Positions 841-58,054 of a stretch of 64,000 nucleotides of DNA are shown one piece after another. The notes under the pieces are model-generated. The model did no database searches. It was given only the letters and a program-made list of their open reading frames with translations, and was not told where the DNA came from. Position numbers and translations under genes: made by a program. The DNA is from a virus (taxonomy: Duplodnaviria; Caudoviricetes): positions 43,481-107,480 of IMG/VR virus record IMGVR_UViG_3300025707_000006; one strand, written 5' to 3'. Position 1 is the stretch's first letter, and each line of letters opens with the position of its first letter.

Positions 841-1501
841 TTGGATAAGGCAAGGATTAATAGGGACACACCCTATACACCTACCTTATCTAGTATCAAG
901 AGGGGTGAATGAAAGTTGTCTAGTAGATTTCTACTCATGGCAACCCCACACCAATGTTCAATGTCCAAAGTTTAAAGCTAACTTTGGACATTCAGGTGAG
1001 CGTATTAAAGACTCACTCATAATCCCTATTACTTCCCCACGAGGGGAGATCTTAGGGATGGAAACACGCAGGATCAACGAGGACGGGTCTAAAAGAGTAC
1101 ATCAGTACCGAACCCTCAATGCTCAATGGAATCCTTATGCTTTAGGTGCAGAGGAAGGTTTTAAGGCATTGTGGGAACTAGGAGATTTATGGGTTGTTGA
1201 GGGGATCTTTGATAAGATCTCTCTCGATAAGGTCATACCTAGTTGTGATGCCTGTATCTCAACCTTGAGGGCTGGTATGGATGCTATCACAATGGACATG
1301 ATAGAGCGTTTCTACACACCTGCCTCAACCATATACATCTGTTATGATAATGATGAGACAGGTCAGAAGAAATCATATTGGCTTCAGCGTGAGATGAAGA
1401 AGCGAGGTATGAGGGCTGTTATCTGGAAGTATCGAGGGAAAGACCCTAACGATGTGTGGACACAAGGAGGAGATCAAGCTCTAAGGAGAATGTTCCTGTA
1501 A
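830..1501 (+). CDS. DNA primase, Toprim catalytic core (DnaG-like)
   Basis: YLVSRG, LIIPI, VVEGIFD, CYDNDETGQK and KDPND motifs; no Zn-binding or helicase domain. Confidence 0.85.
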   Translation: MRDDWIRQGLIGTHPIHLPYLVSRGVNESCLVDFYSWQPHTNVQCPKFKANFGHSGERIKDSLIIPITSPRGEILGMETRRINEDGSKRVHQYRTLNAQWNPYALGAEEGFKALWELGDLWVVEGIFDKISLDKVIPSCDACISTLRAGMDAITMDMIERFYTPASTIYICYDNDETGQKKSYWLQREMKKRGMRAVIWKYRGKDPNDVWTQGGDQALRRMFL

Positions 1502-2775
1502 TCTTCTTCAATATCTCTTACTTCTAAATCCATGATTGCGTAAGAAAGCCCATCAACACCTCTCTTACTTTCATTTAGATTTATAGTAAAGTGTTTAGTT
1601 CCTGTTGTGATGTCCTCATCTTCTTCATTCTCAAAATATTCAATAACACATTGAATGTCCAAACGAAAATCTTCTTCATCGAAGAAAATCTTATCCCTTT
1701 CGAGATAATAATCGGAAAGCTCATATACCTCTCTACCTAGTTCAGTGCTTATCCACCTATCCACAACCTTAATCAAATGTTTTAATGCTTTCCCACTTCT
1801 ATCTATTAAGTTAAGATTAATCGCCTTACGAGCGTTACCGTAGGATTGTTTTTCGAGTCTTGCGATCCTCATCTCAAGAGGATTAATGATTTCTGATGCT
1901 GATCTTCGGTTAGAGGTACTTTTCAGATGTTTTACCACTTCTTTACGATCATGCTTTCCATCTACACTCCCTACTTCAACCCCGACAGGTTTTGCATCGG
2001 GAGAGCTAAAGTAAATGTAAGCCAAAAAGTGTTCATCAACCATACCCTTCTCTTCACAAAAGTCATCATAGCATATTTCTTTCTTTTGACCCTTATCAAT
2101 CAAAAGCTCATAAAGACCCTGCTCGGATTTGATTTGCACAGCTTTGAGAATCTTTGGTCTGCTTTTGAAACCTTTGATAAATTTGGCTCTTTCAGCGGCT
2201 TTAATGACTTCTGTCTCCGTTAAACCAAAAGAGTCTTTTACCCATCTTTGAGAGAAGAAGTCTTTAACATCTTTAAAGTTAAATGCTTGTTTTTCAAGTC
2301 TAGCGATACGACCCTGTTTACGAAGCCTATCTCGCTCTTGGTTGACCATTTTTTGATGCTCCTCTACTTCTTTACGAGCACTCTCTTGACCTACACGATA
2401 AATAACTTGATCAACGACTCGTTTAATGAAGTTTCTTTCGCTCATCTTTGAGTCATTTGCACCACTCAGTTCAAAGTCTACTTGTCTAAAGTCTCTGTTT
2501 CCACCTGTGATCTTGTACTCAGCAGTATCTTTCCCTTCTCTTTTTAGAGAGACTTGGTACACCTCACCTTCAAATTTGAACTTCCCTGATAACCGATTGT
2601 CCTTATCCATTTTCACATCAGAATTGACTGCTCTGTTGTCTTTTAGTCCTTTTAAAAACCACCCATGTACCGTATCTAGGGGGTTTTTTTCAAAAAGTCC
2701 AAAGATTGCTTGTTTTTCAAGACGAGCAATCCTCATCTGAAGGTTATTAATAATTTCACTGGCAGATCTTCTCAT
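1474..2775 (-). CDS. tagged polyprotein with three RIARLEKQ leader copies (putative internal virion protein)
   Basis: ATG 2775 after GGAG; MRRSASEIINNLQMRIARLEKQA, internal GRIARLEKQA and RRSASEIINPLEMRIARLEKQS. Confidence 0.75.
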   Translation of the reverse strand: MRRSASEIINNLQMRIARLEKQAIFGLFEKNPLDTVHGWFLKGLKDNRAVNSDVKMDKDNRLSGKFKFEGEVYQVSLKREGKDTAEYKITGGNRDFRQVDFELSGANDSKMSERNFIKRVVDQVIYRVGQESARKEVEEHQKMVNQERDRLRKQGRIARLEKQAFNFKDVKDFFSQRWVKDSFGLTETEVIKAAERAKFIKGFKSRPKILKAVQIKSEQGLYELLIDKGQKKEICYDDFCEEKGMVDEHFLAYIYFSSPDAKPVGVEVGSVDGKHDRKEVVKHLKSTSNRRSASEIINPLEMRIARLEKQSYGNARKAINLNLIDRSGKALKHLIKVVDRWISTELGREVYELSDYYLERDKIFFDEEDFRLDIQCVIEYFENEEDEDITTGTKHFTINLNESKRGVDGLSYAIMDLEVRDIEEDYRNILLRA

Positions 2776-2841
2776 AATGGTTCTCCATTTGATTAAGGTT
2801 AGACTGATCACTTATGAGAACCTATAAATAAACTATTAAAG
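2707..2841 (-). repeat. promoter-RBS-leader cassette, copy 1
   Basis: CTTTAATAGTTTATTTATAGGTTCTCATAAGTGATCAGTCTAACCTTAATCAAATGGAGAACCATTATGAGAAGATCTGC; near-identical to copies ending at 8670 and 9155. Confidence 0.9.
2824..2838 (-). promoter_or_regulatory. class A (late-type) motif TAATAGTTTATTTAT
   Basis: Intergenic, ~50 nt upstream of ATG; recurs co-oriented upstream of many genes. Confidence 0.7.
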
Positions 2842-3174
2842 TCACCACCATGAGAGGTAAACGATCTCATACCCATCGTCTATTGCCTGTATAGCCGATT
2901 CTATGAACCTCCCTGTTTGAGTCTCCTCATATTTGCCACTCACTCCCCAAAAAGACCCTTTCGCTGTTTGTAAATTTTGATATTCATCTTTGAGTCTTAA
3001 CAAGTCATCTTTGTCTAGGGAAAGCTCAACGCAGTTGAAACTCTCAGCGTTACCTCCTTTGGCATAGTATAACTCAGACATCCAGCCTTCAAGGTTGGCG
3101 TGTTTACGCCACTGTATGATGTAGGTGTCTTCTTCGTCTTGTCGTCTTGTGAACGCATATTGATCTAATCCCAT
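2842..3174 (-). CDS. conserved phage hypothetical protein (MGLDQY...WRKH type)
   Basis: ORF with GAGGAG SD; motif pattern common in phage small proteins. Confidence 0.75.
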   Translation of the reverse strand: MGLDQYAFTRRQDEEDTYIIQWRKHANLEGWMSELYYAKGGNAESFNCVELSLDKDDLLRLKDEYQNLQTAKGSFWGVSGKYEETQTGRFIESAIQAIDDGYEIVYLSWW

Positions 3175-3190
3175 TTATTGCTCCTCTGTG

Positions 3191-3451
3191 TTATGGTTCA
3201 TTTCTATCAAAGTATTTGGGTAAGTCTATGATCTCGATAACTAAGATACCCTCTTGATCCGTAGTTAAACCCAAGCGTTTTGAGGGGTCATAAGCCTCAA
3301 CCAAATGGTACTCTTTTTCAGGTCTGCTCATGTCGTAGTAAAGGCTTATTCCGTATCCGTCATAGGTCTTTGCTAGCCAGCTATAGTTGTGTTGACCATT
3401 GGGTTTTGGGTCTTTGCCTATCAGATAGCTGATAGTTTCGATCTCTCTCAT
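3191..3451 (-). CDS. hypothetical protein
   Basis: ORF, GGAGG SD before MREIE. Confidence 0.6.
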   Translation of the reverse strand: MREIETISYLIGKDPKPNGQHNYSWLAKTYDGYGISLYYDMSRPEKEYHLVEAYDPSKRLGLTTDQEGILVIEIIDLPKYFDRNEP

Positions 3452-3525
3452 GATGACCTCCAAGTTTTCACTAAGGCGACAATAATAGCCACCTCAATGA
3501 GTCCACAGATTAAAGCGTATGCCAT

Positions 3526-3888: not shown

Positions 3889-3940
3889 GTTGTTCTCCTT
3901 AGTGGAGTCTTGGTTGATGAGGTTCATTCCTCATGTAGTC

Positions 3941-3958: not shown

Positions 3959-3969
3959 AGTTTCACCCC

Positions 3970-6822: not shown

Positions 6823-7278
6823 TTAGTATTCCTTACCTTTGGGTTCTTTTGTGATGTCTCTACGCCTATCTTTTAAACCCGCTTCACTAGCTTGAAGAAC
6901 TAAGAATTTTTGAATGTCTCTCTTAGGGATATTTTTGTCTACACCAGTAGCTGTGACAACCGCAAACAGATCTGCCATCGAATTTTTATGCTCTCCTTGC
7001 TGATACAAATTCATTGCCACTGATACTTTAATTTTATCACCATTATGTTCAATAATGGCTGTGTTCTTTGAACCCATGCCTAGCCTTTTTTGTATTTCTG
7101 CGTACCCTATCCCATACATAGGGTTACCATGAAACCAAAGTGATGCGGTATCAAACTTGGGCCTCTTTTTTTGTTCTCTTTCAGGTTCTTTAAATAAGTC
7201 CAAGATAGCACCTAAAAAACCTTCTTTTTGCATATATCTGTACGCAACTCTACTAGCCATCTTATTACGAGTTCTCAT
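6823..7278 (-). CDS. tagged hypothetical protein (MASRVAYRYMQKEG leader)
   Basis: Basic RVA-type leader; class A motif at 7319-7333. Confidence 0.7.
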   Translation of the reverse strand: MRTRNKMASRVAYRYMQKEGFLGAILDLFKEPEREQKKRPKFDTASLWFHGNPMYGIGYAEIQKRLGMGSKNTAIIEHNGDKIKVSVAMNLYQQGEHKNSMADLFAVVTATGVDKNIPKRDIQKFLVLQASEAGLKDRRRDITKEPKGKEY

Positions 7279-7939: not shown

Positions 7940-8284
7940 ATGAGTGAATGGGTCGTATATGTCATCCAGAGTCAGCAGATCAGACGCTCTGCTAAGACAG
8001 GTAAAGAACTACCTGGTTTCTTCTATGTAGGTTGCACCACAGATGTTAACCGTAGGCTGAGACAGCATCAGGGTTTCATCAAAGGAGGCGGGAAATACAC
8101 TGCAAAGCACCGACCTTGGAAGCTCATGTGTACTTATGGCACATACGCTAATAGATCAGAAGCCATGAAAGCTGAGATGGCTCTAAAGAAAAAGCGTGGT
8201 AAGGCTAGGCTCTATTGGACAGAGCAAGAGTCTAAATGGTGTCGAGGTCGTAAAGAAATAGGACTTAAAAACGACTGTATTTAG
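7940..8284 (+). CDS. GIY-YIG endonuclease (Slx1-like)
   Basis: VYVIQS...FYVGCTTDVNRRLRQHQG..KGGGKYT..HRPW; AMKAE. Confidence 0.9.
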   Translation: MSEWVVYVIQSQQIRRSAKTGKELPGFFYVGCTTDVNRRLRQHQGFIKGGGKYTAKHRPWKLMCTYGTYANRSEAMKAEMALKKKRGKARLYWTEQESKWCRGRKEIGLKNDCI

Positions 8285-8603
8285 CTATGTCTGAATCCAT
8301 CTGTTCATTCATCATCCCATGAGGCGGGTTTCCAATATCTAAAGCGTCACCCGTAGATGTTGTCATAAGAATATGATGATACTTTGAGTAGTTTATTTCT
8401 ACACCATTAGAAAGAGAGATAGAAACCATCTCTCGACCTGTAGGGTCCTTCCCTCTTTGCACATCAACAACATTTCTGTTTGATAGTTTTTGCTCGGCAA
8501 GATCGTGAACATAACGCAGATCTACGGCCTCACTAGCAAACCTTTCAAGTTTCGCAATCCTAGTCTCAAGGTTTCTAAGGATTTCTGATGCAGATCTTCT
8601 CAT
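8265..8603 (-). CDS. tagged hypothetical protein (RRSASE leader)
   Basis: MRRSASEILRNLETRIAKLERFAS. Confidence 0.8.
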   Translation of the reverse strand: MRRSASEILRNLETRIAKLERFASEAVDLRYVHDLAEQKLSNRNVVDVQRGKDPTGREMVSISLSNGVEINYSKYHHILMTTSTGDALDIGNPPHGMMNEQMDSDIAKYSRF

Positions 8604-8670
8604 AAGGGTTTCTCCATTTGATTAAGGTTAAGATGATCACTTAAGAGAACCTATAAATAAACTATTAAAG
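8535..8670 (-). repeat. promoter-RBS-leader cassette, copy 2
   Basis: CTTTAATAGTTTATTTATAGGTTCTCTTAAGTGATCATCTTAACCTTAATCAAATGGAGAAACCCTTATGAGAAGATCTGC. Confidence 0.9.
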
Positions 8671-8699: not shown

Positions 8700-9089
8700 T
8701 TAGAGCCTGCGAAGAACCCTCTTAGACTCCTTGAGGAAGTCTGCCTTAACAGAGTCAGAGTCTGGTCCAACCTCGACACGACCAATGGTCAGTCTACCCT
8801 GGTTTCCTTCAGACACATCAACTAAAATGAGATATCCATTCTTCAAGTCTTCTTCATACACGACATTAACATGATTCATATAGCCATTTGTCCACCTTAA
8901 CGCTCCTGTAGGCGAAGACTCAAGAGTATAACCTAACAATTTAGTTCCCGCTAACCTTCTCACAGATTGCATGGGGGACGAGGCGAGGCTGTGTCGGATG
9001 CGATAGAGGGGATCAGGTGTAGATTGTCTTTCAAGACGAGCGACCCTAGTCTCAAGGTTACGGATGATTTCTGATGCTGATCTTCTCAT
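8700..9089 (-). CDS. tagged hypothetical protein (RRSASE leader)
   Basis: MRRSASEIIRNLETRVARLERQS from ATG 9089 after GGAG. Confidence 0.8.
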   Translation of the reverse strand: MRRSASEIIRNLETRVARLERQSTPDPLYRIRHSLASSPMQSVRRLAGTKLLGYTLESSPTGALRWTNGYMNHVNVVYEEDLKNGYLILVDVSEGNQGRLTIGRVEVGPDSDSVKADFLKESKRVLRRL

Positions 9090-9155
9090 AGGAGTTCTCC
9101 ATTTTGTTAAGGTTAATGAGATCACTTAAGATCATTTATAAATAAACTATTAAAG
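9021..9155 (-). repeat. promoter-RBS-leader cassette, copy 3
   Basis: CTTTAATAGTTTATTTATAAATGATCTTAAGTGATCTCATTAACCTTAACAAAATGGAGAACTCCTATGAGAAGATCAGC. Confidence 0.9.
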
Positions 9156-13114: not shown

Positions 13115-15859
13115 TCATTCTAACAAGGTACTAATACTTCGTCCTTCATAGACTACATCATACCCTCCTTCTTGCACCTTAATCCACTCGGCAAGATCTT
13201 TTGCAATCTCTTCAGTTAGTTCCTCTACACAAAAAGTAGGAAGAACGGGGGTTTTCTGAACGGGTTCTTCTACGACCTTCTTTTTAACTATGTTATCGGG
13301 GTTTACTCCATAGTCTACATAAAGTTGTTCTGTCTGCCTTTTGATCTTGGCGATGAATTCCTCTGTGTAATCACATTTAATATTGCTAGATCCACAGTGC
13401 ATACAAACGGTTGGGCTAGGATCACGAGGTGTTTTCCCATCACAACCTACCTCTTTGCACTTGTAAGGTGCATTGATGATCTTATCTCCAGCCTCTCCTG
13501 CAATCACATCTTTCACATCAAAAGGCACTGTCCAATCTTTACCCAGCTCAACATCGACAAGTAAAGGCACACGCCACCCTAAACGCTTAATGACTTTGTT
13601 GCGAGTCATTAATTCAGAAATGATGTCAATCGCTTCTTTCAAGATTGATTTGTGAATCTCAAAAACGATTTCGTCATGTACTGTTAAGACCATCATCAGT
13701 TTGTCTTGCCAGCCACGCTTCTTAGTCTCTTGATAGATGAAGCTCATCGCCAACTTAGTCACATCAGCACTTGTACCTTGAACTGGTCCATTCACTGCCT
13801 TACGCTCATCTTTGGACTTGAACCTAAAGTCATCAGATTTGATGTCGGGTAAAGGCTGAACACGACCCATTCCTGTCTTTACATAACCATGTTTACGACC
13901 AAAATTGTGTTGCTTAGACCACCATTTAGTCAACTCACTATAAGTTGCTGTAAACTTCTTAAACTTCTCGTCTGCTTCTTCCGAAGTGCAACCAATAGTA
14001 CGCTGAACAGCTTTACCTGTACCCCCATAGGATAGAGCAAAGTTGCACCCCTTACCATTGCCCCTCAACGCTTTCCAATCATCACGCTTCTTAGCTCCCT
14101 CACCATAAAATGCAACTGCTGTGATTGTATGTAAGTCTCCAATCTTGTCCGACCCACAACCAGTACAGTTTGAAGGTGGTGCTTTAGCGAATCCATCCTC
14201 TTGGAATTCTTGTGGGTAAGCTGTGCCACATTCAGAACATTCAAAGAAAGCCTTGATCCATTTAGGCTCAAGACTAAGATTGGTTACTAACCGAAGCTCT
14301 ACACCTGCATAGTCAATGGCCGCTAACCACCAATCATCATCTCGTACAGACACACATGAACGCATCTTAGAAATCGCTTCGGGTTTGTTTGGATCATAGG
14401 TAGCAGGTATGCCTTGAAAGGGTACACGACACCCTCCATCTTTGACCTTCCAAGGCTTGCTATTCGTCTTACAGGAAAAACGACCTGTGTCAGCGGCGAA
14501 CTGATCAAACTTAGGTTTAAGCGTACCATCTGGTCCAACATCTTCTACAAATGGAATGAGATACTGACCCATTGCCTTCCCAAGCTCTCGAAAGGTCTTA
14601 ACCTTAGCCATAAAAGGAAAGTCTTCAGCCGCATTTTTAATCACATCTTCAAGAATGTCCTTAGAAGTCACGACCTGACCCGACTTTTCACTCGCCTTAA
14701 GCCCTGGTACACTCAACTCTCTAAATAACAGACCGAGCTTTTGAGGAGATAAAATGTCATAGGTTAATGGAAACTCAATCTCTTCTGTACCTACACTCTT
14801 ACCGAGAACCGTTACAGCCTTAGTAACAAAACCCTTTTCATCGGGATAAAGTCGGAGTGCTTCTTTACGAGCTTCATCAACACGAGTTTTATAACTCATG
14901 CCTTCTACTTCCATGTGATTAAACTTATTCTCTCCTTTAAGAGCACCCTTAAGGACACGCACATAGTTAGGGGTGATGTCTCTCCCTAAAATATCTTTCG
15001 CACCGTTGTAAACTTCAATCAAAGAGTCAAACCATAGCTTCTGACCTTGCTGACTATATTTCAATGCAGTATCTCGATCTATGTAAACACGATTTCTGTG
15101 CATCCACCGAGTCGCAAGTAAACACATACGCTCTAAAACATACATCGAGTTAGTGTGTTCTTTAGCTTCACTGTACTTCTTATACAAAACTTCCCACAGC
15201 CCAAGCGTACACATTGCATCACTAGCGGCATACCAAACACAGGGTTCCCAGCTCACATCAAGTTTAGAGTAGTTTTTGTCGGGAGCATCGGGCATGAGGT
15301 CTGATAACTCAATCATCTCACGATCAAGGTGAACATTGGTTAAATGCTTTAGTCCTCGACCACCTTTTTCACGAGGGTTCAAGAGATACTGAATGATGTA
15401 AGTGTCATGCCACTTGAAGGAGTCCCATCGAGCTTCACCGAGTCCTTTTTTATACTCGTTAAACTCCAAGAACTCTTGATCAAAACCTGCGTTATGGAAG
15501 ATAGGTTGTGCTTCTACTCTTGGGTCAAGTAATCGCTCTAGTGCAGGATACATTAAACGCCAAGGAATGTTATGCTCAACACCTTCTTGATGACCAACAG
15601 GGAAATAATAGCCTTTATCTTTGTGTGCTGAGAGGCATACACCCACAATCGTATCTCTCGTGCGACCATTAAACACACGATTATCAAGACCTGTTGTCTC
15701 AAGGTCAAGCCCATAGGCAACGCTGTTAATACACTCGTCAATGCACTCATCAAGGTTCTCTTTCGTACCTAAGATCAGTTCGGTGTCTTTCATCCACAAC
15801 TTGGGTTTGATATTTGGTCGTCTTAATGATTCAAGCATATCTGCAAACATTGGTTGCAC
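13115..15859 (-). CDS. polA: DNA polymerase family A with 3'-5' exonuclease
   Basis: Exo motifs DLETTG, HNAGFD and YAASDA; TGRFS; motif A DYAGVELR; motif B RGNGKGCNFALSYG; VQGTSAD; motif C VHDEIV. Confidence 0.95.
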   Translation of the reverse strand: MQPMFADMLESLRRPNIKPKLWMKDTELILGTKENLDECIDECINSVAYGLDLETTGLDNRVFNGRTRDTIVGVCLSAHKDKGYYFPVGHQEGVEHNIPWRLMYPALERLLDPRVEAQPIFHNAGFDQEFLEFNEYKKGLGEARWDSFKWHDTYIIQYLLNPREKGGRGLKHLTNVHLDREMIELSDLMPDAPDKNYSKLDVSWEPCVWYAASDAMCTLGLWEVLYKKYSEAKEHTNSMYVLERMCLLATRWMHRNRVYIDRDTALKYSQQGQKLWFDSLIEVYNGAKDILGRDITPNYVRVLKGALKGENKFNHMEVEGMSYKTRVDEARKEALRLYPDEKGFVTKAVTVLGKSVGTEEIEFPLTYDILSPQKLGLLFRELSVPGLKASEKSGQVVTSKDILEDVIKNAAEDFPFMAKVKTFRELGKAMGQYLIPFVEDVGPDGTLKPKFDQFAADTGRFSCKTNSKPWKVKDGGCRVPFQGIPATYDPNKPEAISKMRSCVSVRDDDWWLAAIDYAGVELRLVTNLSLEPKWIKAFFECSECGTAYPQEFQEDGFAKAPPSNCTGCGSDKIGDLHTITAVAFYGEGAKKRDDWKALRGNGKGCNFALSYGGTGKAVQRTIGCTSEEADEKFKKFTATYSELTKWWSKQHNFGRKHGYVKTGMGRVQPLPDIKSDDFRFKSKDERKAVNGPVQGTSADVTKLAMSFIYQETKKRGWQDKLMMVLTVHDEIVFEIHKSILKEAIDIISELMTRNKVIKRLGWRVPLLVDVELGKDWTVPFDVKDVIAGEAGDKIINAPYKCKEVGCDGKTPRDPSPTVCMHCGSSNIKCDYTEEFIAKIKRQTEQLYVDYGVNPDNIVKKKVVEEPVQKTPVLPTFCVEELTEEIAKDLAEWIKVQEGGYDVVYEGRSISTLLE

Positions 15860-15911
15860 CTCCTTATAAGTATCGCTCTCTCCCTCCTATTATATGAGAG
15901 ACACACAAAGC

Positions 15912-15929
15912 GTAACCCCTTATCTATAG
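15912..15929 (+). promoter_or_regulatory. class B motif GTAACCCCTTATCTATAG
   Basis: Intergenic, upstream of 15986. Confidence 0.6.
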
Positions 15930-15985
15930 AATAGTGTAAGAGGTTCAGAATCATCACGAACCCCACACTCCTCAAGGAGAACCAA

Positions 15986-19303: not shown

Positions 19304-19409
19304 AGTGGTTCTCCTTTTGTAATTTGTTTATTAGTACCTCTACTGTACTTATTAAAGGAGTATAAAATGAAGCCGAACCAACAAGTAGCTTTGAGATTAG
19401 GGGCAACCC

Positions 19410-20289: not shown

Positions 20290-20673
20290 ATGAGTAACGA
20301 GACTAAAAAAACTGAAACGACCGAGACTCTGATGGGACCGCCTGCTCCTAAAATAGAAAAATATGATCATATTGGTCATGTGTATCTTATAGTCGTGGCG
20401 GCTATTGTTAGTTATGCAGTCACTGAAATTGTAAAACCTTTCATCTTCAAAACCTGTGCAGAAAAATCTGAGGCTGTTATTCGCCTCTTTGCTGTTATTA
20501 CAGGAGCGATTGTAGGGTACTCTTTAAGTAATGATATTCTTGACCTATGGCTTGGAGCTTCGGCAGGGGCATTAAATGCTTATGTCATCAAAATCATCAA
20601 GTCAAAAATTAAATCCACAGTGGGTGTCGAACTCACACCCACTCCCTCCGAAGAGGGGGGTAAAGAAAAGTAA
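20290..20673 (+). CDS. holin-like membrane protein (paralog)
   Basis: IGHVYL..KPFIFKTC.EKSEAVIRLFA..GASAGALNA shared with 19410. Confidence 0.6.
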   Translation: MSNETKKTETTETLMGPPAPKIEKYDHIGHVYLIVVAAIVSYAVTEIVKPFIFKTCAEKSEAVIRLFAVITGAIVGYSLSNDILDLWLGASAGALNAYVIKIIKSKIKSTVGVELTPTPSEEGGKEK

Positions 20674-20685
20674 TAGTTTATTTAT
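20671..20685 (+). promoter_or_regulatory. class A motif TAATAGTTTATTTAT
   Basis: Exact consensus 36 nt before tagged gene. Confidence 0.7.
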
Positions 20686-20720
20686 CATTCACTCTTTTGA
20701 AAATGAAATGGAGAAATAAA

Positions 20721-21170
20721 ATGAGAAGATCCGCATCAGAAATCATCCGTAACCTTGAGTCTAGGATTGCTCGTCTTGAACGACAATCGGGTCGAGGATC
20801 AAATCGTCTTGAAAGACAAGCAAGACCAAATGAGAAAATAGAAAATGAAACATCAAAAACAATTCTCACTAAGAAGCAATGGGCAGGGATTGCAAAGACA
20901 CACGCCCCAAAACCTTTTGAGAATCCTCTTGGAGATCAAGAGGTGTATTATGACTATCGCAGAGGAGGTATAATCGTTGATGATCGTGATGAGCATGGTG
21001 ATGATGGAGAAATATTTCTAATCAAAGAGATTAAGGGGGGCGGGGCTGAGGGTGCATTTCAAGTCTATCAAGAGGTTTATCCAGATGCTAGACTGGGCCA
21101 AAATGGCTGGAATTTTGATGATATGAAGTATTTAGGGAAGACACTAGATCAACGAGCGAGGAGGGGATAA
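20721..21170 (+). CDS. tagged hypothetical protein (RRSASE leader, duplicated RLERQ)
   Basis: MRRSASEIIRNLESRIARLERQSGRGSNRLERQA. Confidence 0.8.
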   Translation: MRRSASEIIRNLESRIARLERQSGRGSNRLERQARPNEKIENETSKTILTKKQWAGIAKTHAPKPFENPLGDQEVYYDYRRGGIIVDDRDEHGDDGEIFLIKEIKGGGAEGAFQVYQEVYPDARLGQNGWNFDDMKYLGKTLDQRARRG

Positions 21171-21249
21171 AAGATATTTTATCCAAAGGCTAAAGGACTT
21201 GAAGACTATCGAAATGAAACTCAACAAAGCAGGTTTAAAGCACAAGTCT

Positions 21250-21264
21250 TAATAACTTATTTAT
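21250..21264 (+). promoter_or_regulatory. class A variant TAATAACTTATTTAT
   Basis: Upstream of the SNase-GNAT operon. Confidence 0.55.
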
Positions 21265-21301
21265 ATCTCACATTACATGAAACTAAATGTGAGGAATAAA
21301 T

Positions 21302-22662: not shown

Positions 22663-22664
22663 CG

Positions 22665-27262: not shown

Positions 27263-27276
27263 TGTAGTTTATTTAT
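27263..27276 (+). promoter_or_regulatory. class A variant TGTAGTTTATTTAT heading the baseplate operon
   Basis: Intergenic, 46 nt before 27322. Confidence 0.65.
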
Positions 27277-39153: not shown

Positions 39154-39154
39154 A

Positions 39155-46019: not shown

Positions 46020-49000
46020 ATGGCTGATGATTTTAAGACCACAGTTAGTAGAACGCTAGATACGACCAATCGCCAATACACAAATGTAGTATGGCAAGCA
46101 GGTAAACCTCCTCTCGATAGTGAGCTTAACCTAGTAGGTCAACTCGCCACAGATAATCTCTCAAAGACTATTTCGGCAACTGCTCATAGTGGTATCCTAA
46201 TGAACCCTAGAACTGCCGACAGAGACTTTGAGTTTAATCCCCTATGGTCAAACATCTTAAAATCCAAGCCCCTAAAGGCTTTAGTCAATGGGTTGGTTTT
46301 AAACATTGAAGAGACTACCATTAACCTCTCTCCACCACCCACACAAGACAATCGAGTAGACTTTGTTTTCCTAGAGGTGTGGAAGACCATTATCTCTGCT
46401 AGCAATGCAATAGCTGATGCAGACCTTCTTAAGATCAAACCTACTACAACAACCGTTTATTCCAATGGCAATCTTGCGGGTAGTGGGCTAGAAGATGAGA
46501 TGGTAGACACCAATGTTGGATTTGAAACCACAAAGCGTGTACAGGTTCAGTATCGCTTTAGAGTAGTTGATAACATTGACATTTACTCTCACATCGAAGG
46601 TATGTCCAGCAACCTCGTTAAAGCTAAAGGCCCTTTAGATGCTGTTAGCACTGTGAGCTTCAATAACCAACACGCAAATGGAGATGCTGGTCTTTGGGTC
46701 GCTCACATGACAAGTGATGGATGTCCTCTTGGTCAACCTTGTGACCCTAATGTGCCAAACACAGCACTGAGCGATTTCTTAGCAGAGAACATCGTTTATG
46801 GTATCCCTATCTGTGCAATCACTCGAAGAAATGACCACGCTTATGTTGCGTCTGTAAACGCAGGCAATGCTAATCAGAATGGAGCGATGGATCGTAAGCC
46901 TTCATCTACCATGAGTACAGACGCAATTACTCTCCTACAAGCAACATTGACTAATGCTTTAGATGCTTCAATCACAGGTAATGTAACGATCACTAATGGT
47001 GTTGGTTCGGGTCTTGATGATGCTGATCTTTATGGTTCTGAAAGATACTTGGTGCTTGGTGAAGGTCTTAACAGAGAAATCATTAGAGTAAGTGGATTTG
47101 CAAACCCAAATCTTACGATTGTGGCTAGAGGTGAAGGTGGAACACAAGCTAAGTACCACTCAGCAGGAACAAATGTTGTTCTCTTTAACAACCGACCTGA
47201 TGGTAAATATGCTGATCAGATCCATGCCGAAGATCTATTCGATATGCGTCATGCTACCACTATCGGTGAGTGGGATTATCAGTCTCTACTTGAAAGCTCT
47301 CTCTCTGATCTCCTCTTCGGAAATCTAAAGACTGCCTACAAGCAGAACCAACAAAACAACACCACATCGGGAACGACCATAGAAGAAGTTTCTATGATCG
47401 ACAACCAAACCCCACCACAAACATACAATATGGATTGGCCTAATGGGTTTAGAGACACATGGTCTGATGCTTCTGTACCCCAAATGGGATTGACTATGTA
47501 TCTTAGTTTGCCGAGTGCAAGAGACTCTTTTGGGGTAACACAAACAAACCTCAATGTAGCCAACTCAACCTTTTGGTCTATCGGACCAAACTTATCTCCT
47601 AGTGCTTTCATTTATGATGGTCTTGTCATGAAGTCTGGCTCATGGATCAAAATAACACTTAATAGTGATCAGACAAACTTAGCTTATGGGGTCAATCAGA
47701 TTGTTGGTGCAAATACCTCCGAAGAGAGAGGTGTTCGCTTTATCGCACCTAAAGAAGTCAGAGATGCTTCAATAAAACGATCACCATTCACCATCGAAGA
47801 GGTAGGTGATAATCATGGTCAGTTATACTACCCGACCCTTGCATCTAGCTTTGAAAGACCATTTATCGTACTAGGTAAATCTCAGTACGATGCTACATTC
47901 ACCACATCTACTGCTGACAATGTGACAGATCAAAACTATCGTTATTTGTATCGACCAAATGCGATCAATCAGTCAAATGTTGTTGTTGATCAGCAGACTG
48001 GAGCTGGTAAAGCTACAGAACAAGTCGTTGCTGTCAGATTGGGTGCGAGTGGTGTTGATTTACCTCTCGCTGTGAGAAATATCGAATCCCTCGTGACAAA
48101 CAATGGGTATGACACGAGTGGAGATCACTCTAGTTTATATGCTGTCATCTATGGTGACCCAGCCGCTCAACAGAACAATGGTGTATTCAAAGTAATAGAC
48201 ATATTAAACGATGACTTAGACACACCTAATGCTATTTACTATAAATCAACCGACACTACTGTTGGTTGGGCTCCAACATCCAAAGTAGGTTGGCTTATAC
48301 TCAAGCCTATCGACAACATTAACAGAACCCCTGATCTAATTACCGAAAAAATATTGAAGATTGAGTTCAGAACGCAAGACCTCGCTAACAAAGACGATGA
48401 GGTGATGATCGCCATTACAGAATCTGTAGACCACGCCATTGCCAACTCTACTCTAGGTAAACTCTCTATCACAAGCGAGTTCCAACTTGGTGTCTCTGTC
48501 CTCTACCCCTCTGCAACAGGTGGCATTGCTAATGTAGCTGAGGACATTCATAAGATCGGTTTAGTACCAGATGTCTCCACAGGCGAGTTCCTTAACAACT
48601 CGAAGTCTGTTTTACATGGTGCAGATTTCTCTAACTTGCCCCTTATAGGGAATGAGATAGACCTACCAACGAAGAACCATGTCTCTCTTTGGAATAGGCT
48701 ACCCTCATCAAACCTGCCAATCGGTATAGCACAGTCTACTCAGATGGGTGGTCGTATCATCAATGAAGAAGCTGATCGTGAGGCTGAAGCGTTTACAGAT
48801 GAAAACAGTAAGACTGTCGTTCTTAGACCTTTCCAAAACAAGACTGTCATCATCAATAAAGCGATTACGAAGAACCTCGAAGCAAACAATGTTACTCTAC
48901 CTCTAGTTCCAGAACATTGGAACAGCACAACTATTGATGTAGATCTTGAAACATCAGAAATGTTCCTTGCAACTAAGAATGCCGCTTTCGTATTGCCCGA

Positions 49001-51338
49001 AGCAATCATGCCTCGATTCGGTAGGCAAGACATCCCTCTACACAACTATACTGGGACAGAAGATCAGTTTAGAAACGGTCTGAACCATATCTTTATTGAT
49101 AAGTCCTCTGCAAACTCTGATGGTGTATTTAACATCATTGGGGGGCTTGATAACGGAGGTAATCCAGGTGTTAGTAATGTCCTATTCGTCACAGACGACC
49201 CAAATACCTCGTGGGGTGAGCGAAAGACAATCACCACAATAGACAGCAAGATTGGTATTGGAGCTAGAAAAACCTCATTAACTGTTCCTACAAGCGACTT
49301 TGGATCTACCCTCAATGGTATCGAACTTCCTCCTTATTACGGCATTGTTCGTGTCTATGGTGTCTATGAGAGATCTCTATTCCACGATCATTTAAACCAA
49401 CTAGGAGGTCACGCAATTGATCGTGTGACCGTTGCAGGTAATGTGTCAAGTGATGCCTGCCCTAATCTACTAAGAACCGACTCATCAGCGTTCACTATGT
49501 ATATCAGACAAAACGGTGGTAAAGATCATGTCAATGGTGTGGATGGCTTGTCTAACACAGACTATTTACACGCACACACTTATATGCTCACCGAACACGC
49601 AATCGACATCACCCGACTAAATGGTGTGGGTGCTGGTTGGTCTGACGCATCTGTTTTCACAGACTTTAACTATGTTGTTGAAGCTGTGGTATTTATGTTT
49701 GCTGATGGGTTTATCTCACATAACCGTTATGTACTACCTAGAAAACATAACGGTTCTGGATCTGCTCTTGTGGCGACCACTACACAAAAGGCTGTTGTAT
49801 CCACAGTCATTCCTTTTGCTCCTCCTCTTGGTTCACATATCACAGTCGCTTATAAGCGTACTCCATACCAAGGCGACCCTTTAGGTACTCTCGGACAAGC
49901 AGACCAAACAGTACCTCAAGGTCGAAAGAGTCTATCAGAACTCAGACTTGGGACTAAGGTACAGCCAGTAGACCTCTCAAACACCAATAAGCGTAATGTT
50001 GAAGTTCTCGCAAGTATGGATTTCTACACGACACTCGGAACAGGTAAGATTGGTGGGGTGGTTTACCCGACAACAATCACTGATGTCGGTCATACTCCAT
50101 TCCCAATCAATCGAGATCCCACTGCGTTATTGGCTGACGGTCTTACCCACATCCCTTTAAAGACAGCTACCTTTAAAGGTGAGTCTGAACTAAAAGGAGG
50201 TTGGGCGAGCCTATTCCTATTTGAGAAGGCAAAAGATGTCGTTAATGGGGAAGTCACCTTAGCTCTCTATAAGAATGACACATCGGTTAGTACCTTTGCG
50301 ATTGTTACTGCCACGATCCAAGAACAAGTTACATTGGCGATGTTATGGCTACAGGGATTAGGTTATAACTGCTTCCAAACTCGTGGAGAAATCAAACAAA
50401 GTGGTACGGATAACTCAAACTATTTTGGTCTACTCATCCAAGCACCTAACCCTACGGACACCTTTGAGTTAGAGGTTCAATGGAAAGATCTTAGAAACGG
50501 ACAAGACATTCAAGTCTTTGGAAACCTAAGAGAATCGCCTTTGAGTTTTCAAATGTGGACATTAACAGGACCTCCTCTTGTAAACTATGAATCAACACTC
50601 AATTCTCGAAGCATGAGTCGTGTTCATTTCTCTAAGGTTAACACACCAAGAATAAACGCAGGTGATGGTAATACCCCTATCTCTCTAACAGGGATCACCT
50701 CAAGATTACCTATCGGATCTCTCGTTCGAGACTCGGACTTTGTATGCGAAGATATCCTAAGCAATAAGTCGAGCTATTTATTCTCCTCTGCGGGTTCGTT
50801 CTCCACTATTTCTAATCCTGTACCTGTAAGCCCCGATGGTATCCCTTACACAGCTACATTAGGAGTGAGTGGAGATACCTTACAGATGAATGATGGGAAG
50901 ATATACAATGGAATAACACCTGCAACACAAACTAAATATACTATCGCAAGAGGGGGAGGATCTGTCTTTAGTGCAGGGGGAAATGTAGAGGGTGGACCTC
51001 TAAGTTTCCTAGCGACATCATTCAATGAATTTTTACAACCTGTTTTGAAAGGAAGTGCTTTGGTCGGTAGGGCGATGCTTGTGTCTAACAGTTATGAGGA
51101 AGATGATACATCAAGCCCTACAAGTTATGGAAGCGAACTGCAACTTGTAGTAGTAACCCATGCTGTGGATGGTGGTTCTCCCTCTATTACTCTAGGAGGA
51201 GACATTTCACCTTCGGGGTATGGAGAAGGTCTAGCGGCGGCTGATCGGTTTAGAGTCAAAGGTAAACCTTTAGTTAAGGTCTACAGTCAAGCCTCTAACC
51301 TAAGTGTTGTACCTGCTTCGTATAACTCTAGCAACTAA
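46020..51338 (+). CDS. large baseplate/tail protein, paralog of 35935..39153
   Basis: VWQAGKPPLDSELNL, DFVFLEVW, RVQVQYR and RPDGKYAD motifs. Confidence 0.7.
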   Translation: MADDFKTTVSRTLDTTNRQYTNVVWQAGKPPLDSELNLVGQLATDNLSKTISATAHSGILMNPRTADRDFEFNPLWSNILKSKPLKALVNGLVLNIEETTINLSPPPTQDNRVDFVFLEVWKTIISASNAIADADLLKIKPTTTTVYSNGNLAGSGLEDEMVDTNVGFETTKRVQVQYRFRVVDNIDIYSHIEGMSSNLVKAKGPLDAVSTVSFNNQHANGDAGLWVAHMTSDGCPLGQPCDPNVPNTALSDFLAENIVYGIPICAITRRNDHAYVASVNAGNANQNGAMDRKPSSTMSTDAITLLQATLTNALDASITGNVTITNGVGSGLDDADLYGSERYLVLGEGLNREIIRVSGFANPNLTIVARGEGGTQAKYHSAGTNVVLFNNRPDGKYADQIHAEDLFDMRHATTIGEWDYQSLLESSLSDLLFGNLKTAYKQNQQNNTTSGTTIEEVSMIDNQTPPQTYNMDWPNGFRDTWSDASVPQMGLTMYLSLPSARDSFGVTQTNLNVANSTFWSIGPNLSPSAFIYDGLVMKSGSWIKITLNSDQTNLAYGVNQIVGANTSEERGVRFIAPKEVRDASIKRSPFTIEEVGDNHGQLYYPTLASSFERPFIVLGKSQYDATFTTSTADNVTDQNYRYLYRPNAINQSNVVVDQQTGAGKATEQVVAVRLGASGVDLPLAVRNIESLVTNNGYDTSGDHSSLYAVIYGDPAAQQNNGVFKVIDILNDDLDTPNAIYYKSTDTTVGWAPTSKVGWLILKPIDNINRTPDLITEKILKIEFRTQDLANKDDEVMIAITESVDHAIANSTLGKLSITSEFQLGVSVLYPSATGGIANVAEDIHKIGLVPDVSTGEFLNNSKSVLHGADFSNLPLIGNEIDLPTKNHVSLWNRLPSSNLPIGIAQSTQMGGRIINEEADREAEAFTDENSKTVVLRPFQNKTVIINKAITKNLEANNVTLPLVPEHWNSTTIDVDLETSEMFLATKNAAFVLPEAIMPRFGRQDIPLHNYTGTEDQFRNGLNHIFIDKSSANSDGVFNIIGGLDNGGNPGVSNVLFVTDDPNTSWGERKTITTIDSKIGIGARKTSLTVPTSDFGSTLNGIELPPYYGIVRVYGVYERSLFHDHLNQLGGHAIDRVTVAGNVSSDACPNLLRTDSSAFTMYIRQNGGKDHVNGVDGLSNTDYLHAHTYMLTEHAIDITRLNGVGAGWSDASVFTDFNYVVEAVVFMFADGFISHNRYVLPRKHNGSGSALVATTTQKAVVSTVIPFAPPLGSHITVAYKRTPYQGDPLGTLGQADQTVPQGRKSLSELRLGTKVQPVDLSNTNKRNVEVLASMDFYTTLGTGKIGGVVYPTTITDVGHTPFPINRDPTALLADGLTHIPLKTATFKGESELKGGWASLFLFEKAKDVVNGEVTLALYKNDTSVSTFAIVTATIQEQVTLAMLWLQGLGYNCFQTRGEIKQSGTDNSNYFGLLIQAPNPTDTFELEVQWKDLRNGQDIQVFGNLRESPLSFQMWTLTGPPLVNYESTLNSRSMSRVHFSKVNTPRINAGDGNTPISLTGITSRLPIGSLVRDSDFVCEDILSNKSSYLFSSAGSFSTISNPVPVSPDGIPYTATLGVSGDTLQMNDGKIYNGITPATQTKYTIARGGGSVFSAGGNVEGGPLSFLATSFNEFLQPVLKGSALVGRAMLVSNSYEEDDTSSPTSYGSELQLVVVTHAVDGGSPSITLGGDISPSGYGEGLAAADRFRVKGKPLVKVYSQASNLSVVPASYNSSN

Positions 51339-54750: not shown

Positions 54751-54763
54751 ATGACATCTTCCT

Positions 54764-54778
54764 TAATAGTCTATTTAT
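54764..54778 (+). promoter_or_regulatory. class A variant TAATAGTCTATTTAT
   Basis: Upstream of the paralog triplet. Confidence 0.65.
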
Positions 54779-54825
54779 AATTTATATGTATATAGGTGAA
54801 CCCCTAACTATTAAGGAGAAAGACA

Positions 54826-55536: not shown

Positions 55537-55549
55537 TAGGAGATAAACT

Positions 55550-56278: not shown

Positions 56279-56289
56279 GGAGAATAAAC

Positions 56290-56946: not shown

Positions 56947-56977
56947 TCATATTTATACACATAAGGAGTAAGACAAG

Positions 56978-57199
56978 GTGAAGATTGCCCTATCAGATAA
57001 GAAAGTCTTAGGTGCTTTTTTAAAGCGAAACTCATTTGAAGGTCGTGTTTTAAAAACAGATGGTAATGAGTTAAGAGGAACATGGGGCAACTTACCCCTT
57101 ATTGCTAAATGGGATAAGAAAGATAAACTCATTCAAATCCAATCTAGTGATAAGGGTGTACGCAAGGCACTGTCGGCTTTAGAGACTCTTTTAGAGTAG
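56978..57199 (+). CDS. hypothetical protein
   Basis: AAGGAG SD, GTG start. Confidence 0.6.
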   Translation: MKIALSDKKVLGAFLKRNSFEGRVLKTDGNELRGTWGNLPLIAKWDKKDKLIQIQSSDKGVRKALSALETLLE

Positions 57200-57251
57200 T
57201 CTTTGGTATTATAGGATTGCATTAACACCCTTGAAACCAAAGGCGTATACT

Positions 57252-57512
57252 ATGGATACCGAGATTAAACCAGAGCCTCTTTACAAGACCTCTGATCTAT
57301 ACTTTGCGGCTTATTTAAAGACCACAGGTATGGAACTATTAAAGACAGAACTAGATGGTCGTAAAGTAATCTTCGTATTTGAAAAGCACCATAGTTTCAA
57401 AGACCTTAAAAGAGAATACTTTAACCGTACCTCAAGAGTACCTGCTCTTACCTTTGTTGATGAGATCAGATCCATGAAGTCTTTAACCTACATGGCTAAA
57501 GAAGATTTATAG
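57252..57512 (+). CDS. DUF5659-like small protein
   Basis: YKTSDLYFAAYL...VIFVFE. Confidence 0.6.
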   Translation: MDTEIKPEPLYKTSDLYFAAYLKTTGMELLKTELDGRKVIFVFEKHHSFKDLKREYFNRTSRVPALTFVDEIRSMKSLTYMAKEDL

Positions 57513-57521
57513 TTTCTTTAT
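57507..57521 (+). promoter_or_regulatory. class A variant TTATAGTTTCTTTAT
   Basis: Upstream of tagged gene 57560. Confidence 0.6.
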
Positions 57522-57559
57522 AATTGCTCCTTTGTGTCCACAACACAAAGGAGATTGCT

Positions 57560-58054
57560 TTGAAAAGATTAGCCTCAGAAATCATAAGTGAGTTAGAAAC
57601 TCGTATTGCTCGCCTTGAAAAACAAGCTACTTCAAGTCGCAGAGCCTCAAGTCGCAGAGCCTCAAGTCGATACGCAGACCCATTTTTGGCTGAACTACAA
57701 TCTGACATTGATGACGGTATGCACATGGCAAATGAGTTTCAAGCAGGGAGAAATCCTGATGGTCAAGGGTGGTCGAATGAAACTCAAAAAGATTACAACA
57801 GCCCACCTGCTCCTAAGAACCAAGCAGATTGCTACACCGAAGACAACCTTGAAGGTCTCGGTAAGCCTGGTGATGGGGTGACTTGTTACCGACTCCACCA
57901 TGAATATGGAAAAGCAAACTCTGGAAAACCAGGATCATCAGCAAGACAAAAGTACAATAAAAAGTATCGTGAGAACTTCATGGACTCACCAAGTATCCAA
58001 AGAAAAACCTGTCCAAAACCTGGTGGTGGGAGTGGTCCTTGCAACAGAGGATAA
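57560..58054 (+). CDS. tagged protein (leader variant plus SSRRA repeats)
   Basis: TTG start after AAAGGAG; KRLASEIISELETRIARLEKQATSSRRASSRRASSRYA. Confidence 0.75.
   Translation: MKRLASEIISELETRIARLEKQATSSRRASSRRASSRYADPFLAELQSDIDDGMHMANEFQAGRNPDGQGWSNETQKDYNSPPAPKNQADCYTEDNLEGLGKPGDGVTCYRLHHEYGKANSGKPGSSARQKYNKKYRENFMDSPSIQRKTCPKPGGGSGPCNRG
57632..57669 (+). repeat. 15-bp tandem repeat (SSRRA, ~2.5 copies)
   Basis: tcaagtcgcagagcc repeated. Confidence 0.9.

Follow-up and report, generated by a model that had tools for sequence, protein, structure and literature searches.

The internal proteins of T-even phages are diverse defence proteins which, in the passages of PMC3012670 devoted to them, have only a capsid targeting sequence (CTS) in common, and in giant phages, according to parts of PMC5694885, propeptides have been interpreted as doing the job of the CTS, with identical N-termini found on the diverged paralogs gp53 and gp54. 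N-terminal tags are also described, in sections of PMC9054023 and PMC11495950, on the unrelated payloads of PVC, the Photorhabdus virulence cassette, a contractile-tail machine in which loading of payload into the tube needs the AAA ATPase Pvc15. At the DNA level, repeated regulatory cassettes (PeSL) of T4-type phages flank variable ORFs and mediate shuffling between related phages (parts of PMC2839356 and PMC4122927).

The locus described here lies in a stretch of 64,000 nucleotides (the window) of a 107-kb contig from an uncultured phage, a jumbo myovirus of whose genome the contig makes up roughly one third. As with the T4 CTS of IPI-III and Alt, a short N-terminal peptide is the sole common part of diverse, fast-evolving accessory proteins, whose genes lie in variable regions and would be made together with the structural proteins, to judge here from their promoter; compared with the CTS as covered in parts of PMC3012670 and PMC5694885, however, the tag is longer (23 residues against 10-20), zipper-like and unrelated in sequence. 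The two systems also differ in scale and in head machinery, with 25-31 tagged genes per genome here against a handful in T4, and with a small PHROG-type capsid protein and a ClpP-type protease in place of gp23 and gp21. The T4 prohead cleavage site is [LI]-x-E, whereas the tag ends in K/R-Q-S/A. Head packaging and tag removal belong to T4, the present system being known from its genes. SPN3US, phiKZ and 201phi2-1 are, like this phage, jumbo myoviruses with many head-internal proteins, but their propeptides, in the portions of PMC5694885 that treat them, are mostly longer than 100 residues, a T4-type protease cutting them at A/S/G-x-E, whereas here one short tag recurs on unrelated proteins. 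The triplet A-S-E does occur at tag residues 5-7, but a protein cut at that point would keep the helix.

Some tagged genes of the clade stand, outside the head module, within an operon whose first genes are tail-tube-like, which recalls PVC; PVC is however not a phage but an extracellular contractile injection system, and its signals are not a conserved zipper. Repeated cassettes that border variable ORFs and have joints inside them are seen here as in the PeSL system. PeSLs are non-coding units of an early promoter and a stem-loop, whereas the present cassette combines a late-type promoter with 23 translated codons and has its recombination joint inside the coding tag. PVC payload signals run to about 50 residues. 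Short peptides on diverse cargo are further known as double-glycine leaders, which are cut by C39 peptidases, and as the encapsulation peptides of bacterial microcompartments and encapsulins, the tags of encapsulins being mostly C-terminal. The tag resembles these in being a short amphipathic helix followed by a linker, and a C39-like peptidase gene adjoins tagged genes here; unlike them, it has no Gly-Gly and no transporter was seen, nor is any shell protein known besides the capsid.

A 23-residue tag on unrelated cargo

Five of five tagged genes in the window encode, by translation, the N-terminal consensus M-[RK]-R-[SL]-A-S-E-I-[IL]-x-x-L-[EQ]-x-R-[IV]-A-[RK]-L-E-[KR]-[QF]-[AS], starting at 2775, 8603 and 9089 on the minus strand and at 20721 and 57560 (TTG) on the plus strand. 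Residue 23 is the last similar position among them and the cargo beyond it is dissimilar, blastp among the five cargos alone giving a best E of 0.18 over 14 residues. The original prediction of a tag shared by five genes, with similarity ending right after it, is thus borne out. The features of the window are:

1474..2775, minus strand: tagged gene 1 (P0001, 433 aa), leader codons 1-23 at 2707-2775
about 1849-1908, minus strand: full internal leader of P0001, RRSASEIINPLEMRIARLEKQS
about 2287-2310, minus strand: partial internal leader of P0001, GRIARLEKQA
2823..2838, minus strand: class A promoter-like motif TAATAGTTTATTTATA, perfect, tagged gene 1
8265..8603, minus strand: tagged gene 2 (P0002, 112 aa), leader at 8535-8603
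8652..8667, minus strand: class A motif, perfect, tagged gene 2
8700..9089, minus strand: tagged gene 3 (P0003, 129 aa), leader at 9021-9089
9137..9152, minus strand: class A motif, perfect, tagged gene 3
20671..20686, plus strand: class A motif, one mismatch, tagged gene 4
20721..21170, plus strand: tagged gene 4 (P0004, 149 aa), leader at 20721-20789
21250..21265, plus strand: class A-like motif, two mismatches, before an untagged endonuclease gene at 21302
27265..27276, plus strand: perfect class A core TAGTTTATTTAT, ahead of the baseplate operon, 45 nt before the gene at 27322
27322: first gene of the baseplate operon, sheath-initiator-like; Baseplate_J gene at 28359-31634
54764..54779, plus strand: class A motif, one mismatch, before an untagged 236-aa gene at 54826
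57507..57522, plus strand: class A motif, two mismatches, tagged gene 5
57560..58054, plus strand: tagged gene 5 (P0005, 164 aa, TTG start), leader at 57560-57628
59226..59241, plus strand: class A motif, perfect, before an untagged 238-aa gene at 59303

The internal tag copies divide P0001 into three cargo units in a single frame, and P0004 carries a duplicated leader end (RLERQS...RLERQA). The TTG start of tagged gene 5 is credible because its syntenic ortholog in the relative G002 begins exactly at the leader. Seven further tagged genes, together with a decayed cassette lacking cargo, lie on the contig outside the window.

Conservation is near-total over residues 1-23 and nil from residue 25 onward, the fall from near 100% to background spanning two residues. 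Positions 21-24 are K/R, Q, S/A and a small residue, after which there usually follows a Ser/Thr/Gly/Lys-rich stretch and then the globular cargo. With heptad-spaced hydrophobics (A5, I9, L12, I16 and L19) and invariant charged residues (E7, E13, R15, R18 and E20), the tag reads as an amphipathic, leucine-zipper-like helix; its string RIARLE we take to lie within the c-Jun zipper itself. Among the 11 copies of the tag in this phage, Ser6 is encoded by AGT in five and TCA in six, Arg18 by five different codons, and Ala5 and Ala17 by three each; since synonymous codons thus differ among copies, selection is seen to act on the peptide. Orthologs only 34-47% identical still keep the tag, and an internal copy is kept in three diverged WGR proteins.

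The scan of contig and relatives for the leader, called for by the original prediction, yielded 12 tagged ORFs on the contig and 12, 31, 25 and 11 tag matches in the relatives G001, G002, G003 and G004, complete relatives having 25-31 tagged genes apiece (about one per 12 kb in G002). At E<=1e-3 a profile search found the tag in 974 protein cluster representatives, starting at residue 1 in 143 of the best 150 cluster matches. Of 244 stretches in IMG/VR that fit the pattern, 105 could be confirmed, whereas none of the 192 pattern stretches from 185,579 prokaryotic species genomes was confirmed as the tag. Searches of 50,697 GenBank phage records by tblastn gave no leader match, whether the query was a leader piece of 35 aa (E limit 1) or the three-leader P0001 (E limit 10).

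The cargos form 68 blastp clusters from 93 unique sequences, 51 of them singletons and 17 with at least two members, and only three of the best 150 tagged proteins match any Pfam family. Across 146 cargos the median length is 133 aa (range 53 to 396), a TM-like segment is present in three, and pI values divide into 59 acidic and 72 basic; one tagged family of 350-375 aa has several tandem paralogs in G003. Orthologs in G002 were found for three of the 12 tagged ORFs, tagged gene 5 among them, while 80 of the 98 untagged ORFs with 90 aa or more have one (Fisher p 1.3e-4). Turnover of the tagged genes, as read from these orthologs, is far faster than that of their neighbours.

Promoter, leader cassette and recombination joint

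Allowing up to three mismatches, TAATAGTTTATTTATA has 13 occurrences in the window where 1.31 would be expected; none of 100 shuffles reached 13. The 12-nt core lies 48, 49, 48, 35 and 38 nt from the start codons of tagged genes 1-5; the predicted spacing of 35-50 nt therefore holds when counted from the core (35-49 nt). A cassette of about 135 bp, which had been called nearly identical in three genes, does recur, but the three 135-nt copies are 77-80% identical pairwise (104-110 matches in 135-137 aligned columns). By subtraction, the 66 non-coding nucleotides (52-62 identical) are more alike than the 69 coding ones (48-53). The UTR is conserved in six of nine copies in this phage, and three tagged genes have differing UTRs and the same peptide. 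Folding of the UTR is no better than that of shuffles in five of six copies; a hairpin 3' of the motif of tagged gene 5 pairs with the SD (z -4.18). With its cargo clusters, Pfam matches and blastp results, the system agrees with the original view of a reusable cassette of promoter, SD and leader that is fused to unrelated cargo.

Sharing of the promoter with the baseplate operon, also foreseen, is confirmed by the perfect core before 27322 and extends to structural operons of the complete relative G002. There the core occurs 51 times at up to one mismatch, against 4.5 in shuffles, and precedes the major-capsid, tail-tube-like, baseplate and ClpP-type head protease operons as well as 18 tagged genes. 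Since the class A motif is found at the head of the capsid, tail-tube and baseplate operons too, the tagged genes can reasonably be taken to be expressed late, probably with the structural genes. In one mosaic pair the joint falls right where the tag ends, with 163 of 164 residues identical before it and 29% identity after it; by this alignment the tag DNA is a recombination joint.

Head, tail and protease genes of the clade

The leader motif was further expected in capsid propeptides. The major capsid protein of G002 (292 aa), which matches the PHROG major-head-protein family and has no match to Pfam Gp23 or Phage_capsid, showed neither a leader-like N-terminus nor a propeptide, and the G002 portal likewise had no leader-like N-terminus. 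Tag and head maturation would therefore not be tied together by a common cleavage code. Neither a T4-type S77 protease (PF03420, searched in G000-G004) nor a Gp23 capsid was detected, but these are weak negatives because neither search rang in any control genome. The clade does encode a ClpP-type head maturation protease. On the tail side, the window holds Baseplate_J and a weak, below-cut-off sheath-initiator match, and G003 a sheath C-terminal domain scoring just under its cut-off.

Directly 3' of three tagged genes, in the same late-type operon and in a like arrangement in G002, lies a gene for a C39-like peptidase (Peptidase_C39_2, E 1.6e-5, 26 bits with the cut-off at 24). Over its N-terminal 176 residues the G002 and G004 proteins reach 85-93% identity, and the G003 protein is 64% identical over 339 residues; the peptidase was thus found in three of four relatives searched, both complete genomes included, and not in G001 (73% complete). 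Cys20, His103 and Asp123 are invariant in four of four sequences and might be the catalytic residues; the AlphaFold model (pLDDT 42.8) is unusable. The peptidase gene has just its first five codons, MRRSA, in common with the tag. No ABC transporter appeared among the Pfam results and 25 of 45 PHROG families for the ORFs of the contig. An actin-like (Volactin-family) gene is 92-97% identical across G000, G002, G003 and G004 and adjoins a tagged gene in all four; its family has 2590 matches, many at about 65% identity.

Possible roles of the tag

The best explanation, which we hold tentatively and at somewhat less than even chances, is that the tag is an address for virion cargo, in the head or the tail. 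The portable module consists of a promoter specific to the phage and probably late (core TAGTTTATTTAT), which structural operons use too, a conserved 5' UTR with a GGAG ribosome-binding site, and the 23-residue tag. Its many cargos, small soluble accessory proteins that turn over fast, would thereby all be marked for the same fate. The tag would most likely dock to a conserved, late-made virion component, so that tagged proteins would be built into the capsid interior or the tail lumen and enter the next host together with the DNA; a phage protease may trim the tag, and the DNA of the tag also serves as a homology patch for swap, insertion or fusion of cargo. Several observations speak against virion cargo: 25-31 different packaged proteins are many for one virion; the tagged genes are scattered, some in the tail-tube-like operon, and not in the head module; the major capsid protein and portal of G002 lack the motif, and S77 and Gp23 searches, weak as they are, came out negative; and the tag is unlike the T4 CTS and ends without a known prohead-protease site. 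A near-invariant helix of 23 residues is also much stricter than known capsid-targeting peptides, and it could equally dock a non-virion partner. Head packaging with a cut after [KR]-x-[AS], as originally proposed, is a candidate fate, and the data suit tail-lumen loading or docking outside the virion about equally well. The fuller proposal, that one 23-residue coiled-coil tag, carried overall by about a thousand protein families, lets a clade of non-T4 jumbo phages pack some 30 exchangeable proteins per genome into its virions for co-injection, with cargos traded between phages at the tag DNA, we regard as rather doubtful; if true, it would be a natural plug-and-play system of effector delivery, far larger than the T4 internal proteins and built on different head machinery.

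The tag could instead be a helix for docking to, or oligomerising with, some hub of the infected cell, such as the actin-like filament or another late cytoplasmic assembly, or it could simply zip tagged proteins to one another; it would then stay on and nothing would be injected. The heptad hydrophobics with their invariant charged residues fit such a role, RIARLE occurs in the text of papers on the Jun/AP-1 zipper, and internal copies are tolerated and conserved. The highly conserved actin-like gene with its tagged neighbour points the same way, but neighbours shared by four related genomes count as one observation, tagged genes are common everywhere, and conservation of the gene needs no tag because the family evolves slowly in general. 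A cellular hub would also leave unexplained why the tag is found only on fast-turnover accessory proteins and why a structural promoter is used, and we consider it unlikely. Rather improbable, in our view, is a true leader cut off by the C39-like peptidase, with the cargos inactive until then and packaging optional. The position of the peptidase gene, repeated in G002, and its presence in both complete relatives favour this, and the tag resembles double-glycine leaders in its length (23 aa), in being an amphipathic helix and in its small residues 23-24; yet positions 21-22 are K/R-Q in place of Gly-Gly, no transporter partner was found among the Pfam and PHROG families covered, G001 yielded no peptidase, and the Pfam match is weak and the model unusable.

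That the peptide has no targeting role and merely rides on a mobile expression cassette, giving captured ORFs strong late expression, is quite improbable, although T4 PeSL cassettes offer a precedent (parts of PMC2839356 and PMC4122927). Spread by recombination or gene conversion would suit the greater likeness of the non-coding part, the conserved UTRs, the joint at the end of the tag, the decayed cassette without cargo and the MRRSA codons of the peptidase gene. Against it stand the varied synonymous codons under an invariant peptide, which are unlike gene conversion or an RNA-level constraint, retention of the tag in strongly diverged orthologs, functional-looking internal tags far from any start codon, and the same peptide behind different UTRs. 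A single diverged paralogous family with the N-terminus as its best-conserved part is very remote: the multi-member cargo clusters and the tandem paralogs of G003 are what such a family would give, but singletons prevail, the five window cargos lack mutual similarity, lengths and pI vary widely, and conservation drops to background within two residues.

The leader, its cassette and its promoter

Translation from all five starts (window positions 2775, 8603 and 9089 on the minus strand, 20721 and 57560 on the plus strand) yielded the N-terminal motif that the original prediction had ascribed to these genes. A six-frame scan of the contig with the strict motif revealed two further tagged gene starts, along with two internal tag copies in the first window gene, P0001, of which one is full and the other partial; with a looser pattern, the tagged ORFs of the contig numbered 12. 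As had also been proposed, similarity ended after the leader, the five window cargos having nothing in common. In the best 150 representatives of a protein profile search, residues 1-23 read M-R-R-S-A-S-E-[IV]-I-R-N-L-E-x-R-[IV]-A-R-L-E-[KR]-Q-[SA], with L12, A17 and E20 invariant, residue 24 usually small and conservation absent from residue 25. Of the 25 matches from the more distant genome G003, 18 were confined to the tag's second half, which argues for L-E-x-R-[IV]-A-x-L-E as its invariant core. Among PHROG families, the five window proteins matched only two tiny unnamed ones, which touched the leader copies inside P0001. The tag is devoid of a hydrophobic core and was thus discarded as a Tat or Sec signal; an RRxS kinase site was considered and dropped.

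Nine of the contig's own copies aligned with promoter, UTR, GGAG and leader all in register. The near-identity claimed for three of the cassettes proved overstated at a measured 77-80%, their non-coding portion being more alike than their coding portion. A shared regulatory RNA structure was dropped because five of the six UTR copies folded no better than shuffles (z -0.40 to +0.99). The sixth, the sole strong one, belongs to the tagged gene with a TTG start at 57560, whose ribosome-binding site it pairs:

Window 57524-57574, plus strand: 11-bp hairpin pairing the Shine-Dalgarno sequence (-16.7 kcal/mol, z -4.18, equalled by 0 of 200 shuffles)

The promoter-like 16-mer (class A motif) occurred 13 times in the window for 1.31 expected and 25 times in the whole contig, where 15 of the 18 sites with at most two mismatches lay roughly 35-75 nt before a gene start. 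The five tagged genes started 35-49 nt behind its 12-nt core, in agreement with the 35-50 nt originally reported, and a perfect core was likewise found where predicted, before the baseplate operon. In the complete relative G002, the core was present in 51 copies with at most one mismatch (4.5 in shuffles), nearly all in front of genes. These included 18 tagged genes, the gene immediately upstream of the major capsid gene, the baseplate operon, an operon beginning with tube-like genes and one ending in a ClpP-type head maturation protease. Its position ahead of capsid, tube, baseplate and protease operons points to the class A motif being a promoter of structural genes, from which late expression of the tagged genes would follow as a sound inference rather than a measurement.

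Spread of the tag and turnover of its cargos

A single virus contig of 107,480 bp, about 34% complete according to CheckV, has the window as its right-hand 64 kb. Within the window are genes for a family-A DNA polymerase and a Baseplate_J protein, a weak sheath-initiator-like match and, further downstream, very large ORFs; helicases, methyltransferases and an actin-like protein are encoded in the remainder of the contig. Among GenBank phages, a sizeable match was found only to an uncultured phage of 485 kb that lacks annotation (32.5% identity across the baseplate protein), and megablast of window 20600-23700 against GenBank phage records found no match. Gene content and this sole sizeable match argue for the contig being a fragment of an uncultured jumbo myovirus. 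Two giant ORFs, which share 54% and 81% identity with those corresponding to them in G002, probably encode proteins of the tail fibre or the baseplate periphery:

Window 39113-45172, plus strand: 2019-aa ORF downstream of the baseplate genes
Window 46020-51338, plus strand: 1772-aa ORF downstream of the baseplate genes

When 1.84 billion proteins were searched with a profile, 974 clusters passed E<=1e-3 and 108 also passed E<=1e-10; in 143 of the best 150 of the 974 the match began at residue 1. Using a pattern back-translated from the leader alignment, 105 of 244 stretches were confirmed in IMG/VR, many of them in contigs of 200-375 kb and often several per 6-kb locus. The four related virus records (G001-G004) yielded 12, 31, 25 and 11 matches, respectively, two of these records being rated complete (375 kb and 312 kb). 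Among prokaryotes represented by one genome per species (185,579 species), none of 192 pattern stretches was confirmed, and the tag thus looks confined to free viral contigs. In GenBank phage records, tblastn with a 35-aa leader piece gave no match at E<=1 and, with P0001, one chance-level match (E 6). A literature search found no paper describing the tag, and none of the papers matching the string RIARLE was on phages.

By blastp, the 93 distinct complete cargos from the loci formed 68 clusters, of which 51 were singletons; with nothing common to the five window cargos, a single paralogous family was rejected. Tagged proteins were short (median length 133 aa) and their cargos soluble, with a transmembrane-like window in 3 of 146; 59 of these 146 were acidic and 72 basic. 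A Pfam family was assigned to 3 of 150 representatives (WGR, DUF5419 and VF530). A homolog search with P0003 retrieved four proteins, none of them named, and the AlphaFold model of a conserved 371-aa tagged family (mean pLDDT 43.1) was too poor for a fold search.

Untagged proteins of G002 were mostly 60-97% identical to their counterparts in the contig. Of the 12 tagged ORFs, only 3 had an ortholog there, compared with 80 of the 98 untagged ORFs that reach 90 aa or more (p 1.3e-4). The first window gene matched a homolog in another contig at 163 of 164 residues through the internal RIARLEKQA, beyond which the other contig's cargo shared only 29% identity with the third unit of the window gene; exactly at this joint, an extra cargo and a full leader are inserted in the window gene. 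A cassette without cargo was also found:

Own contig about 24180-24340 (L002:6180-6340), minus strand, outside the window: decayed cassette, no cargo following

It retains a class A motif with one mismatch, the conserved UTR and the ATG, and its leader bears a 13-nt deletion causing a frameshift and a stop after 11 codons, RIARLENK being readable in another frame. The RIARLEKQA joint and this cargo-less cassette indicate that tag DNA serves as a recombination joint, from which in-frame polyproteins arise. The module is real, as are its scale and the way it evolves, all of them well supported.

Destination of the tagged proteins

Short N-terminal tags on diverse accessory proteins of a large phage are known from T4, as passages of PMC3012670 and PMC5694885 describe; what is new is this particular tag, the kind being already known. 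The sequence here is long, near-invariant and zipper-like, it is borne by about a thousand protein clusters and doubles as a recombination site, and it occurs in a clade in which no T4-type head proteins were detected. Pfam S77, Phage_capsid and Gp23 found nothing in the contig or its four relatives, the S77 and Gp23 searches being silent in control genomes too, and the Tunturi_5 portal as query gave only a 26-residue chance match. The capsid and portal genes of G002 were identified through PHROG families; the original prediction had proposed looking for the motif in capsid or scaffold propeptides, and it was found in neither the G002 major capsid protein nor the portal. A protein of 573-584 aa combines a repeat-rich N-terminal half, an internal tag copy that retains its Met, and a WGR domain:

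L084:107-1828, plus strand: WGR protein with internal tag copy
L085:2053-3807, minus strand: WGR protein with internal tag copy

This protein is encoded by the first gene of an operon ending with the ClpP-type head protease, with the portal gene nearby; in G002 the 573-aa form and the protease share that operon. The protease and a C39-like peptidase are candidate processing enzymes:

Own contig 32950-33996 (L002:14950-15996), minus strand: C39-like cysteine peptidase, behind three tagged genes

The peptidase gene directly follows three tagged genes in the contig and also follows tagged genes in G002. Its product begins with the cassette's first five codons (MRRSA), lacks the remaining tag and differs between phages in its C-terminal half. 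The first genes of the operon with those three tagged genes have G003 homologs located behind a sheath-like gene. By analogy with payload loading in PVC (PMC9054023, PMC11495950), the tail lumen is as open a candidate destination as the head.

We tentatively lean towards the tag being a virion address, for head or tail. Unlikely in our estimate is a helix docking tagged proteins elsewhere than in the virion. The tag follows a heptad pattern (hydrophobic positions 5, 9, 12, 16 and 19), residues 5-37 were helical in a low-confidence model of one tagged protein, and RIARLE was otherwise met in papers on the Jun zipper. A leader processed by the peptidase is more doubtful still. Complex prediction of residues 1-178 of the C39-like peptidase with the leader scored 0.00 against a mark of 0.32, without controls and uninformative either way, and the AlphaFold model of the peptidase (mean pLDDT 42.8) was too poor for a fold search. 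About as doubtful is an explanation purely at the level of the cassette; the contig's 11 own copies encode the same residues with differing synonymous codons, which argues for selection on the peptide itself.

Were the tag a virion address, it would mark a large catalogue of proteins delivered ahead of gene expression (974 protein clusters, hardly any of which has a known domain), and the tagged proteins would be the first place to look for functions in anti-defence and host takeover. Tagging, loading and injecting would then be a general jumbo-phage strategy independent of T4-type head proteins, and the tag, being short, sharply bounded and portable, could serve as a packaging handle. Even with another destination, a near-invariant 23-residue signal on 6-8% of a phage's genes would imply a central hub in the biology of jumbo phages that has yet to be recognised.

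Neighbouring genes

A Volactin-family actin-like protein (PF25216, E 5e-75; L002:1145-2143, minus strand, own contig 19145-20143) was 92-97% identical in G002, G003 and G004, other shared proteins being 47-93% identical, and a tagged gene adjoins its gene in all four genomes. The family had 2590 database matches, many at about 65% identity. A 260-aa late-operon protein (L002:9692-10471, minus strand) matched DUF481 (E 3.5e-11), which we take to be an outer-membrane beta-barrel family, odd for a phage. No match reached 0.9 in the ESM Atlas for two neighbouring late proteins, the sole lead being a weak GNAT-like C-terminal fold in a 628-aa late protein, and phmmer against the PDB returned 0 matches for three neighbouring proteins.

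Four paralogs of ~400 aa with a C-terminal N6/N4 DNA methylase domain were encoded at L001:7487-11272 and 15111-16286 (plus strand), three of them in tandem; an adjoining 687-aa protein has QueC-like and Asp/Arg-hydroxylase-like parts, and together they may form a DNA-modification cluster. A G002 protein (within L097-L115) matched PHROG 1211, '2-aminooxy adenylosuccinate synthetase' (E 2.3e-88), which we tentatively read as the PurZ family; if so, it hints at 2-aminoadenine DNA in the clade. G002 further encodes GroEL-like and PhoH-like proteins.

A second short motif, R-V-[AV]-S-x-Y-[LMI], recurs at window 6823-7278 (minus strand), at window about 19924 (plus strand), at the C-terminus of the protein encoded by L002:14950-15996 and in L094 and L095. 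It lies near the N-terminus in MRTRNKMASRVAYRYM and MNKSVQRVASKYM and at the extreme C-terminus in ...RRASRVASSYLNRG, ...IERVASAYINNH and ...IQRVVSRYLR, and the 371-aa tagged family has a related TAS-x-Y-P close to its C-terminus.
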